Positions 23,967 through 39,984 of a DNA stretch of 40,397 bases are shown one piece after another; the stretch's first letter is position 1, and each line of letters starts with the position of its first letter. The stretch is from a virus (lineage: Duplodnaviria > Heunggongvirae > Uroviricota > Caudoviricetes). The position numbers were made by a program, and so were the translations under genes. Location of the stretch: IMG/VR virus record IMGVR_UViG_2541047757_000012. One strand, given 5' to 3'. Under the pieces are notes generated by a model that worked only from the letters and a program-made list of their open reading frames with translations, had not been told where the DNA came from and ran no database searches.

Positions 23967-24218
23967 CTAACAGGATGCTCTGACTCGCAATTCATCCAGC
24001 AGTTTATCATTTCCCATAATGTCACTTACCCTCATCGGTAAAAAAATTGCCTTTCGACCATTACGATACATCATTGATTTTGGGATTTCAGGGAAGTAAT
24101 CCATTTCGACTATAACTGACAGGTCATCACGACGTATGACTGCGTATTTGCTACTAAATAGTTTCTTTATTTTTTCCACGATGCCTCCAGGTTTATAAGT
24201 ACAAAAGGTTATATCCAC
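23967..24218 (-). CDS. Hypothetical small protein (GTG start, AT-rich island)
   Basis: 83-aa ORF starting with GTG at 24218 and no clear SD; region 24180-24330 is very AT-rich. Confidence 0.3.
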   Translation of the reverse strand: MDITFCTYKPGGIVEKIKKLFSSKYAVIRRDDLSVIVEMDYFPEIPKSMMYRNGRKAIFLPMRVSDIMGNDKLLDELRVRASC

Positions 24219-24360: not shown

Positions 24361-24386
24361 CAACAAAAAACCCGCCGAAACGGGTT
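24361..24386 (-). terminator. hok mRNA terminator-like hairpin
   Basis: Minus-strand stem AACCCG/CGGGTT followed by T-rich tract, about 70 nt downstream of the hok stop; second hairpin at 24426-24447 in the 3' UTR. Confidence 0.4.
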
Positions 24387-24454
24387 AAGCGCGGGTGCGT
24401 TGAGGATGCCTGACTCATCAGAGGTGGCGAGGGATTTCTCCCTCGCCTGGTCTC

Positions 24455-24610
24455 TTACTCCTCAGGTTCGTAAGCTGTGAAGACAGCGACCTCCGTCTGG
24501 CCGGTTCGGATTCGTACCTCGCAGAGGTCTTTCCTCGTTACCAGTGCCGTCACTATGACGGTTAAACAGATGACGATCAGGGCGACTAACATCGCCTTTT
24601 GCTGCTTCAT
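24455..24610 (-). CDS. hok: Hok/Gef-family type I toxin
   Basis: 51 aa MKQQKAMLVALIVICLTVIVTALVTRKDLCEVRIRTGQTEVAVFTAYEPEE, near-identical to HokD/RelF as I recall it; SD AAGGAGAAG before the ATG at 24610. Confidence 0.8.
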   Translation of the reverse strand: MKQQKAMLVALIVICLTVIVTALVTRKDLCEVRIRTGQTEVAVFTAYEPEE

Positions 24611-24760
24611 AGCCTGCTTCTCCTTGCCTTTCGGCACGTAAGAGGCTAACCTAGATTTGCCGTTCATAGATTGAGCCTCAGATTAATGTTAAGCGTCTTG
24701 CCGGACGCGTAATGTTAACTGGGGCTTTTCTCTGTCTGCCTTACAGTGGCATGCCTGAGG
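24611..24760. promoter_or_regulatory. hok leader region, expected site of Sok-like antisense RNA and mok overlap
   Basis: Inverted repeat TCTGTCTGCC...GGCAGACAG at 24730-24770; in hok/sok loci the antisense RNA is encoded opposite the leader. Exact boundaries not determinable by eye. Confidence 0.35.
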
Positions 24761-24948
24761 CAGACAGCCTCAAGCACCCGCAGCAATCTTACCGACACCG
24801 ATAAGAAAACGCTATTTTTTATTGCCAGCACCTTCTATCCAGGCTAATTTATCTGCGTCAGAACGGCGCAATGCGCTCGCCTGAGATACGTTTACTTGCC
24901 ATGGTAACAACAGGTAACGGCAATTGTTGTTTCTGTTTTGTTTCCTTC

Positions 24949-24979
24949 AAAAACCCCGGACCATCAATCCGGGGTTTTT
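24949..24979. terminator. Bidirectional intrinsic terminator
   Basis: A5, stem CCCCGGA (24954-24960) / TCCGGGG (24968-24974), T5. Confidence 0.55.
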
Positions 24980-24984
24980 GTTTG

Positions 24985-25068
24985 TTAACCCCAACGGCAA
25001 ATCGAATACACCACCAGCGCCACCGCCATCACCATTCCTACCGTTGCGAATGCTTCAGGCCAAGTCAT
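24985..25068 (-). CDS. Hypothetical 27-aa hydrophobic peptide (absent from ORF track)
   Basis: ATGA start/stop overlap with upstream gene at 25065-25068; GGAGG 9 nt upstream; translation MTWPEAFATVGMVMAVALVVYSICRWG; terminator immediately downstream. Confidence 0.4.
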   Translation of the reverse strand: MTWPEAFATVGMVMAVALVVYSICRWG

Positions 25069-32329: not shown

Positions 32330-32724
32330 CTGAATACCTTATTACTGGTTGTGTGAGAACTCCAGTATACCACCGAGCCTGAAGTGGTAAAAAGACAGGC
32401 GCACAACACGAAGGCGCATTTCCGGTATTCATAAAGAGTCGGTCTTGTCTGTTAAATTTAAATGGTGGGAGTGCGCCTCCGGTTGTAAATAACGACATTG
32501 CTATGTGTAGTCTTTGGCGGCATCAGTTCTACTCCGTGGCTGCCCTGCCGCCCCTTTTTAAAGTGAATTTTGTGATGCGGTGAATGCGGCTAAGCGCACG
32601 CGGCACAGTTAAAAGCATCAGTGTTATGGGTGGATTATCCGGCGTTAATTGTTAACTGGTTAACGTCACCTGGAGGCACCAGGCACCGCATCGACAAAAT
32701 TCATTTGTAAAAATGGAGATAATT

Positions 32725-37857: not shown

Positions 37858-38052
37858 ATGCGGTATGAAAAAGTCAAACCATGCCCTTTTTGTGGTTGTC
37901 CATCAGTAACGGTGAAAGCCATTTCAGGATATTACCGCGCGAAGTGTAACGGATGCGAATCCCGAACCGGCTATGGTGGAAGTGAAAAAGAAGCACTCGA
38001 ACGATGGAATAAACGAACCACTGGAAATAATAATGGAGGTGTTCATGTATAA
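37858..38052 (+). CDS. ralR: Restriction alleviation protein Lar / RalR toxin
   Basis: 64 aa MRYEKVKPCPFCGCPSVTVKAISGYYRAKCNGCESRTGYGGSEKEALERWNKRTTGNNNGGVHV, closely matching Rac Lar/RalR as I recall it; SD GAGAG before the ATG at 37858. Confidence 0.8.
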   Translation: MRYEKVKPCPFCGCPSVTVKAISGYYRAKCNGCESRTGYGGSEKEALERWNKRTTGNNNGGVHV

Positions 38053-38233
38053 AATTACCGCCACTATTGAAAAGGAAGGTGGCACTCCTACTAACTGGAC
38101 AAGGTACTCAAAAACAAAGTTAACCAAATCGGAATGCGAAAAAATGCTCTCGGGGAAAAAAGAAGCAGGCGTTTCCAGAGAGCAGAAAGTAAAGCTGATA
38201 AATTTTAATTGCGAGAAACTTCTGCCCTCGTGA
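38045..38233 (+). CDS. Hypothetical small protein
   Basis: ATG at 38045 preceded by GGAGG; overlaps the lar stop by 8 nt; 62 aa. Confidence 0.4.
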   Translation: MYKITATIEKEGGTPTNWTRYSKTKLTKSECEKMLSGKKEAGVSREQKVKLINFNCEKLLPS

Positions 38234-39760: not shown

Positions 39761-39794
39761 AGACGCTTGCAACTGATTGATTTTAAATACAATT

Positions 39795-39897
39795 AAAAAA
39801 AGACCGAATACGATTCCTGTATTCGGTCCAGGGAAATGGCTCTTGGGAGAGAGCCGTGCGCTAAAAGTTGGCATTAATGCAGGCTTAGTTGCCTTGC
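39795..39897 (-). ncRNA. sdsR: sRNA SdsR (RyeB)-like host gene
   Basis: Minus-strand sequence GCAAGGCAACTAAGCCTGCATTAATGCC...GACCGAATACAGGAATCGTATTCGGTC + T7 matches my recollection of SdsR; sigma-S-like -10 CTATTCT upstream (about 39905-39911); terminal hairpin 39802-39828. Confidence 0.55.
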
Positions 39898-39984
39898 CCT
39901 TTAAGAATAGATGACGACGCCAGGTTTTCCAGTTTGCGTGCAAAATGGTCAATAAAAAGCGTGGTGGTCATCAGCTGAAATGTT

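Follow-up and report, generated by a model that had tools for sequence, protein, structure and literature searches.

Known hok loci in plasmids, prophages and chromosomes

The hok/mok/sok locus of plasmid R1 (parB) is a plasmid-borne toxin-antitoxin system with proven post-segregational killing. Its mRNA carries the pairing elements tac, fbi, ucb and dcb as well as a mok reading frame that overlaps hok, and it is opposed by a cis-encoded antisense RNA, Sok, with a free 5' tail. Throughout the hok/mok/sok family, translation of hok relies on translation of the overlapping mok frame. According to the R1 switch model, the nascent hok mRNA takes the form of a metastable tac hairpin (PMC9841398).

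The only prophage copy studied experimentally is hokW-sokW, which is found with mokW in Stx2 phage 933W/Sakai prophage 5 (AF125520), the latter called Sp5 here. [quoted passage not shown] Upon RecA-dependent induction of Sp5, SokW disappears and HokW appears; when hokW-sokW is deleted, growth arrest comes about 40 min later and half as many phages are released (PMC8621323).

Other relatives reside in the E. coli chromosome. For instance, hokD (relF) of K-12 is part of the cryptic prophage Qin, has relE-relB directly upstream, and is among the previously characterised toxic control sequences (bioRxiv 10.1101/2025.08.07.668861). Loci of the hokC (gef)/mokC/sokC type occupy a fixed chromosomal position and are not carried by a prophage. 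Work cited in the same preprint found neither post-segregational killing nor rifampicin activation for the intact chromosomal hokA, hokB and hokC loci (bioRxiv 10.1101/2025.08.07.668861), so that, as far as this citation goes, an intact sequence is no guarantee of R1-like behaviour.

Here, a hok locus is described from a viral DNA of 40,397 nucleotides (IMG/VR record IMGVR_UViG_2541047757_000012), referred to as the window. It is very probably an intact, R1-like hok/mok/sok RNA switch that combines a toxin of the HokD type with a leader resembling that of hokW. The cassette extends over about 24365-24791 from its terminator to its -10 box, with hok on the minus strand. An initial annotation, made from the letters of the DNA, had boxed it at 24361-24760; this interval holds most of the cassette but leaves out 19 nt at the 5' end of the mRNA, including tac (24779-24768), and the -10 box. 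Cassettes of this kind are already known, ordinary and routinely annotated, with PGAP naming the toxin HokD.

The toxin gene and the overlapping mok frame

The hok gene (24455..24610, minus strand) encodes a 51-aa peptide, MKQQKAMLVALIVICLTVIVTALVTRKDLCEVRIRTGQTEVAVFTAYEPEE, that matches the Pfam family PF01848 (HOK_GEF) over residues 6-47 with an E-value of 7.2e-24 and 83.6 bits (cutoff 22). Its scores against the NCBIfam Hok and HokA models are below the cutoffs of those models. As the initial annotation had recognised, the protein is HokD/RelF-like: it aligns to K-12 HokD at 50 of 51 residues, the sole change being V9 for I9, and the coding sequences agree at 155 of 156 nt. The exact peptide occurs on at least 998 public contigs, where it is named 'type I toxin-antitoxin system toxin HokD'. 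Identity to HokW of 933W is 90% for the protein and 94.2% for the coding sequence, and the C-termini differ (VFTAYEPEE in the window, VFVDYESEK in HokW). Hok of R1 is more distant at about 53% identity (29/55 columns in a pairwise alignment).

A Shine-Dalgarno sequence of its own, also claimed at the outset, can be read as AGGAG at 24620..24624, 9 nt before the hok ATG, and AAGGAG is conserved at this site in the hok-locus alignment. In the list of open reading frames, hok lies within a longer frame of 70 codons, mok (24455..24667, minus strand), which starts at an ATG at 24667, adds 19 codons upstream of hok, is in frame with it and ends at the same stop codon. A putative mok Shine-Dalgarno, GAGG (24676..24679), stands 8 nt before the mok ATG and is invariant in the alignment. 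The exact 70-aa Mok sequence is found on 42 public contigs, and the layout is that of the annotated mokW and hokW of 933W. An open, overlapping mok frame with its own ribosome site is what the family leads one to expect, and suggests that hok would be translated by coupling to mok here too. A supposed difference from R1, in which mok would be out of frame with hok by the numbering of PMC9841398, was dropped; an R1-type plasmid copy has an in-frame ATG 57 nt upstream.

The coding sequence also contains a candidate site for A-to-I editing by TadA. The motif TACG at Tyr47 (24469..24472, minus strand) would, on editing of the A at 24471, specify Cys in place of Tyr. The longer motif TACGAA does not vary among the 41 aligned loci and is shared with hokC-type loci, and the predicted fold of the full-length mRNA leaves the motif unpaired. 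A genetically encoded Cys30, predicted to be periplasmic, stands opposite the TAC of Tyr47 with its following G, a combination characteristic of TadA-edited hok mRNAs. In K-12, TadA edits the equivalent Tyr position to Cys in hokC, hokD and hokE (PMC5630033, PMC12214031), at about 6% in the case of hokD (PMC12214031). The edited Cys of HokB takes part in a disulfide that is required for full toxicity (PMC5630033, PMC12214031).

The hok mRNA and its predicted switch

The full-length hok/mok mRNA is predicted to span about 415 nt (24365..24779, minus strand), with inferred ends: the 5' end follows from where the Rfam model begins, together with the conserved GGGUGCUUGAGG, and the 3' end from the terminator. 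The latter (24365..24386) was located by a terminator scan as a stem at 24386-24369 followed by a T-run, which bears out the downstream terminator of the initial annotation. The leader matches the Rfam family RF01794 ('sok') at 24779-24605 on the minus strand, at 112 bits (gathering score 59) and an E-value of 7e-25. The match covers the model in full (positions 1-157), lies on the strand of hok and ends in the hok AUG, which indicates that the model describes the hok mRNA leader and that Sok is its partial complement. An Rfam search for Sok on the opposite strand had been proposed as a check; the family was indeed found, but on the hok strand, with Sok as a 71-nt complement on the plus strand.

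Transcription of hok would start from a putative promoter with the -10 box TAAGAT (24786..24791, minus strand), which precedes the mRNA 5' end by 6 nt. Other hok loci have TAGAAT, TACAAT and TATAAT in the same register, and no recognisable -35 element accompanies the box. A generic scan with the sigma-70 consensus missed the hok promoter as well as that of Sok. Both were therefore placed by alignment with 933W and R1 and by a published sokW promoter mutation. Upstream of about -12 of hok, the window and 933W are unrelated in sequence.

The missing -35 and the unlike upstream sequence would fit a locus that is intact but physiologically silent, transcribed weakly at most, with a toxin that is never released and a cassette that hitch-hikes on recombining lambdoid prophages. 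The inactivity reported for the intact hokA, hokB and hokC loci, as cited above, points the same way. This reading is nevertheless quite unlikely, given that every regulatory pairing has been kept, with compensatory changes across genera (see below), and that hokW-sokW, the nearest locus to have been characterised and one whose Sok body and promoter match exactly, functions in the prophage where it naturally occurs (PMC8621323).

The fold of the transcript bears out the long inverted repeats that had been noticed in the leader, in line with the Rfam match. The full-length RNA (24779-24366, 414 nt) has a predicted energy of -173 kcal/mol (z = -6.3), and none of 100 shuffled sequences folds as well. 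In its minimum free energy (MFE) structure, the translational activator tac (GGGUGCUUGAGG, 24768..24779) pairs with the fold-back inhibition element fbi (CCUCAACGCACCC, 24393..24405), and the ucb or anti-SD box AGCCCC (24721..24726) covers the mok Shine-Dalgarno. The downstream complementary box, dcb (GCCUC, 24642..24646), pairs with the mok Shine-Dalgarno region in the centroid of a truncated RNA and in the Rfam consensus. Between the hok stop codon and fbi, a GC-rich hairpin of 22 nt (GGCGAGGGAGAAAUCCCUCGCC, 24426..24447) forms in the full-length and truncated folds alike. By analogy with R1 (PMC9841398), it is likely to be the stem that protects the 3' end of the processed mRNA. All of these elements are on the minus strand.

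For the truncated RNA, the last 48 nt were removed, mimicking the 3' processing known for R1. Its centroid contains the tac/ucb and mokSD/dcb pairings; tac/ucb is likewise found in the Rfam consensus and in the fold of an 80-nt 5' fragment. In the MFE structure of the truncated RNA, the textbook tac/ucb pairing is absent and tac instead forms a hairpin with the sequence directly downstream, the form ascribed to nascent R1 hok mRNA. The apical mokSD/dcb stem includes pairs that are non-canonical relative to the Rfam consensus and is 54-66% paired across the family. Taken as models, these folds place the family's alternative tac/ucb and mokSD/dcb pairings at the window locus.

The same elements recur in the described relatives. 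The tac sequence is identical in 12 E. coli-type loci, both tac and fbi are identical in 933W, and the leader as a whole is 89.7% identical to that of hokW. The 3' UTR and terminator are 79.6% identical between the window and 933W. R1 shares tac, fbi, ucb and dcb with the window, together with the overlapping mok frame and an antisense Sok, encoded in cis, whose 5' tail is free. The sokT hairpin of the window, in contrast, is much longer than that of R1, with about 16 nt extra relative to the Rfam consensus. Loci of the hokC type belong to the same family and have the same tac sequence; their sokT hairpin is 18-20 alignment columns shorter than that of the window, and they carry an fbi variant, UCUUCAACGCACCC, that uses G-U pairs.

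Covariation across related loci

From GTDB species representatives, 59 related loci were collected, and 41 apparently intact ones were aligned, among them the window, 933W and a phage fragment of the Rac type. The aligned loci come from Escherichia, Kluyvera, Photorhabdus, Pantoea, Citrobacter and others. Degenerate or relE-fused loci were left out (L008, L009, L022, L033, L050, L052, L054 and L061), and their inclusion would lower the percentages of pairing given here.

When the fold of the window is projected onto the 41 loci, 85.6% of cells pair, against 39-46% with slid partners, although the first figure is inflated by the use of the window's own MFE structure as the reference. The counts of compensatory change are less affected by this choice: 40 pairs are changed on both sides, compared with 14-23 for slid partners, and the observed covariation score was reached by none of 500 shuffles. 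The tac-fbi helix (12 pairs) is 91.9% paired across the alignment and has four pairs changed on both sides. At its fourth pair, 28 loci have U-A and 11, mainly from Photorhabdus, have C-G; compensation is also seen at three other pairs. The 3'-UTR hairpin (helix 14) is 97.6% paired, with three pairs changed on both sides.

Other parts of the switch do not vary. The tac-ucb helix is 99.7% paired, invariant and without covariation, as would be anticipated where one segment has to pair with either of two others, and the base of the mokSD/dcb helix is invariant across the 41 loci. Overall, the compensatory changes across genera argue for selection on the RNA switch.

The Sok antisense RNA

Sok was located by transfer of the annotated sokW of 933W (offset 21382, without indels), which places a predicted 71-nt RNA at 24659..24729 on the plus strand. 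It is complementary to the mok Shine-Dalgarno, the mok start codon and the sokT hairpin, and its predicted fold consists of a 14-nt single-stranded 5' tail, a long hairpin and a U-tail (-29.9 kcal/mol, z = -4.9). The putative Sok promoter (24624..24652, plus strand) has a -35 box TTGCCT (24624-24629), a 17-nt spacer and a -10 box TAACCT (24647-24652), in register with TTGCGC-17-TATCCT of R1. Both boxes and Sok nt 11-71 are identical to those of sokW in 933W and Sp5. The -10 box is the element that Takada et al. destroyed in making their 'pro-less' sokW (primers YO-421 and YO-422; PMC8621323). With its promoter, free tail, hairpin and U-tail over the mok initiation region, the predicted RNA has the make-up of a cis-antisense Sok. 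Inspection by eye of the predicted target loop showed no convincing YUNR U-turn motif.

The first 10 nt of Sok, GCCGUUCAUA in the window and GUUCAGCAUG in sokW, coincide with mok codons 1-3 plus one base and lie in its hypervariable tail. As 61 of the 71 nt are identical between the variants, a role of the tail as a specificity code is inseparable from a lack of constraint.

These results also bear on whether the locus might be a pseudo-locus, that is, a Hok frame whose leader or antisense gene is disrupted, leaving it unregulated or dead in the manner of K-12 hokD. Such remnants do exist: the nearest protein relative is one of them, and degenerate copies occur among the related loci (L008, L054, L061). 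The initial annotation had named a disrupted leader as the sign to look for. Alignment and folds show instead that tac, ucb, dcb, fbi, mok and the Sok promoter are intact. The mok frame is open, the pairing elements all find their partners, the Rfam leader match is full length at nearly twice its cutoff, and the Sok promoter and nt 11-71 equal those of a functional sokW. A pseudo-locus is thus highly improbable.

The comparison with K-12 hokD shows what such a remnant looks like. In the 3' UTR, where fbi and the terminator are found, it shares 91% identity with the window, and it lies at the equivalent position of a lambdoid prophage, between the immunity/early region and Q. Upstream, its homology to the window gives way to relE 17 nt ahead of the ATG. 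It follows that K-12 hokD has kept the toxin, fbi and the terminator, while tac, ucb, sokT, mok and sok are all missing from it. The module is thus seen intact in the window and as a remnant in K-12 hokD.

Distribution and prophage setting

The block from the -10 box to the terminator (about 24362-24789) is common to thousands of E. coli genomes and to 78 phage records. Matches to the cassette were found in 4716 of 5426 complete E. coli genomes, and genomes with any match have a median of two hok-matching places and up to nine. This abundance fits the selfish spread expected of a silent, hitch-hiking locus. An identical 45-mer that covers the -10 box and 5' tail of Sok together with the start of mok is, however, present in 1627 of the 5426 genomes, and this exact conservation speaks against silence.

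The window is a Rac/Qin-like lambdoid prophage of E. coli with int/xis at its end, adjoining yebY and the RyeA/SdsR locus. Upstream of hok lie replication genes of the ydaU/ydaV type, and 3' of it follow genes for a NinB/Orf-like DUF1367 protein, a DUF1364/HNH protein and a Q-like antiterminator, all on the strand of hok. The nin-like placement given in the initial annotation agrees with this gene order. An 83-aa ORF at 23967-24218 was considered as Rem, by comparison with Qin, and rejected, as tblastn with K-12 Rem gave no match; its sole match is phrog_1813. The same prophage encodes ralR/ralA and thus has two type I toxin-antitoxin systems.

Homologues of relE and relB were sought by tblastn in the whole window and none was found (best E-values 0.21 and 0.40), consistent with the earlier remark that relBE-like genes are not adjacent. 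The locus does not belong to a relBE-hokD (relBEF) operon of the K-12 kind; the hok leader and sok fill the position of relBE. With all regulatory elements present at the level of sequence, the proposal of a stand-alone hok/sok cassette holds, and the locus is a self-contained hok/mok/sok module within the nin region of a lambdoid prophage that resembles Rac and Qin.

The position of the cassette is shared by several phages and prophages. In all of the nine contexts examined, hok points the same way as the early genes on either side of it; in eight it lies between replication genes and Q, 933W being the exception. Equal placement and orientation were seen in strain CE0021a, the Rac fragment and K-12 Qin, and in phages Tritos, vB_EcoS-640R1, HannyBb and pPE4. 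In 933W, the three-gene layout is the same, with mok in frame with hok, and the cassette is likewise co-oriented with its neighbours; it is found near attR, downstream of int across attP, whereas that of the window is in the nin region. In the excised 933W circle, in which attL and attR are joined, hok follows int on the same strand at a distance of about 3 kb. A hydrophobic 27-aa ORF just upstream of the cassette is conserved between the two, with a terminator hairpin and about 150 nt separating it from hok in the window that are absent in 933W.

Predicted mechanism and possible roles

By analogy with R1 and hokW, a weak promoter would give rise to a stable hok mRNA of about 415 nt. On the nascent RNA, the 5' tac would pair with the sequence just downstream, and in the full-length RNA it would pair with fbi, with ucb lying over the mok Shine-Dalgarno, such that neither translation nor Sok binding could take place. 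Slow 3' trimming would then remove fbi and release tac to ucb, presenting the mok ribosome site on the mokSD/dcb hairpin. As long as it is made, the short-lived 71-nt Sok would pair through its free 5' tail with the mok region, and the duplex would be destroyed by RNase III, with help from Hfq as in hokW. Once the supply of Sok stops, mok would be translated and hok with it by coupling, and the 51-aa Hok would insert into the inner membrane and collapse it. Editing of Tyr47 to Cys by TadA may add a step that tunes toxicity.

What would trigger this sequence of events can be approached through hokW-sokW. As the most likely role, the cassette is tentatively suggested to be silent in the lysogen and to be activated on prophage induction, speeding lysis and phage release in the way of hokW-sokW. 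The initial annotation had offered prophage stabilisation or phage exclusion as functions of such loci. The Sp5 experiments, the only ones on a prophage copy, point to help with lysis and release, not to either of these (PMC8621323).

A somewhat less probable, indeed rather unlikely, possibility is that the cassette is active for defence or addiction, with Sok decaying either once an infecting lytic phage shuts down host transcription, which would give abortive infection, or once the prophage is lost, which would give post-segregational killing that stabilises it. R1 itself differs from the window in being a plasmid system; in work cited in PMC8621323, its hok/sok cut the efficiency of plating of T4 by 42% and shrank its plaques by about 85%. 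In addition, hok is about four-fold enriched in prophages (bioRxiv 10.1101/2025.08.07.668861), and a stable mRNA paired with an unstable antisense RNA suits any trigger that stops transcription. Against this, hok is not enriched beside defence systems (bioRxiv 10.1101/2025.08.07.668861), and PADLOC returned zero matches for Hok or its neighbouring genes. In Sp5, the deletion of hokW-sokW altered lysis timing and phage output, and no stabilisation role was reported (PMC8621323).

For the suggested activation on induction, the position of the cassette may supply the wiring, although this is more doubtful than the role itself and, taken alone, unlikely. Antiterminated early transcription would run through the cassette and head-on into the Sok promoter. 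Co-orientation with the early genes would allow such read-through on induction, from pR in the window and from pL across attP in 933W and Sp5. If true, read-through would act as transcriptional interference that shuts off Sok, accounting for the RecA- and induction-dependent loss of SokW, and Hok would be a built-in early lysis timer.

Significance

As a textbook type I toxin-antitoxin system, the locus has small significance beyond its correct annotation. Nevertheless, the intact module clarifies that the relBE-hokD 'operon' of K-12 is a secondary fusion. The presence of hok/sok and ralR/ralA in one prophage makes for a convenient natural system in which to study the function of type I systems in temperate phages, and the constant co-orientation of hok with early transcription offers a cheap, testable account of how Sok may be switched off on induction.

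Prophage setting and insertion site

The hok-bearing prophage is a composite whose individual modules are common. Against complete RefSeq E. coli genomes, the top match of a 10-kb stretch of the window was 97.5%, and the mosaic as a whole (1-40397) was missing from this genome set. The overlapping sRNA genes SraC/RyeA (+ strand) and SdsR/RyeB (- strand), at 39791-39935, adjoin yebY and lie directly outside the int/xis end, and the prophage has therefore integrated next to a core-genome sRNA locus.

Other regulatory RNAs are encoded within the prophage. A full-length RalA antitoxin RNA (38051-38229, - strand; Rfam RF02694, 217 bits) adjoins ralR, as annotated in homologous genomes, which makes this a second type I toxin-antitoxin system alongside hok. 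The antisense sRNA DicF (32502-32553, + strand; Rfam RF00039, 61 bits) is located in the leftward early operon, as it is in the Qin prophage of K-12.

Related hok loci in other genomes

In K-12 Qin, the 3' end of relE abuts the Shine-Dalgarno sequence of hokD, and the hok leader and sok are missing. Among related hok loci from GTDB species representatives, this fusion was found in two E. coli loci (L009 and L061) and in Kluyvera sp. CHPC 1.2972 (L033). The Kluyvera Hok protein is quite different, with 68% identity to that of the window, and the upstream sequence on the relE side is almost identical to that of K-12. The relBE-hok junction may thus have spread or been recombined.

E. coli-type hok cassettes were also found under unexpected host names. 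Two lie on tiny contigs in non-enterobacterial assemblies, those of Acinetobacter idrijaensis (L024, 275 bp) and Xanthomonas pisi (L029, 431 bp), with a protein identity of 93-98%. Another is carried by 'Actinobacillus phage vB_Apl-pPE4' (H36/L069; recorded host Actinobacillus), where the H36 DNA is 95% identical and the nin region is syntenic with that of the window. All three probably reflect contamination or mislabelling.

Variable and conserved parts of the cassette and its upstream flank

Across 12 E. coli-type loci, no part of the cassette varies more than the stretch complementary to the 5' tail of Sok (24659-24672, + strand; mRNA positions 108-121), which has a mean pairwise identity of 0.65 and a minimum of 0.29. 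It comprises codons 1-3 of mok, the frame overlapping hok, and the 6 nt preceding the mok ATG. By the same measure, the neighbouring sokT hairpin reaches 0.97 and the CDS 0.95. Such variability could insulate co-resident hok/sok paralogues from one another, or the segment could simply be unconstrained.

Upstream of the hok promoter, a symmetrical, terminator-like hairpin, CAAAAACCCCGG...CCGGGGTTTTTG (24948-24980, both strands), separates the cassette from a small ORF. It resembles a nin-region terminator and would shield hok from early read-through unless antiterminated. The Stx2 phage 933W, which carries hokW-mokW-sokW (PMC8621323), has at the equivalent place neither this hairpin nor some 150 nt of additional sequence present in the window.

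The small ORF (24985-25068, - strand) encodes a hydrophobic 27-aa product, MTWPEAFATVGMVMAVALVVYSICRWG, and carries no PGAP annotation; its start codon and the stop codon of the preceding gene overlap in an ATGA. It is kept directly 5' of hok in 933W, L001, L007/L012 and L029 (88-100% at the amino-acid level), and the genes preceding it in 933W and in the window are unrelated (blastp E 2.4). The published pBAD18-hokW-sokW insert (primer YO-432) also took in this ORF, which may be a fourth, unrecognised component of a mobile hok cassette.
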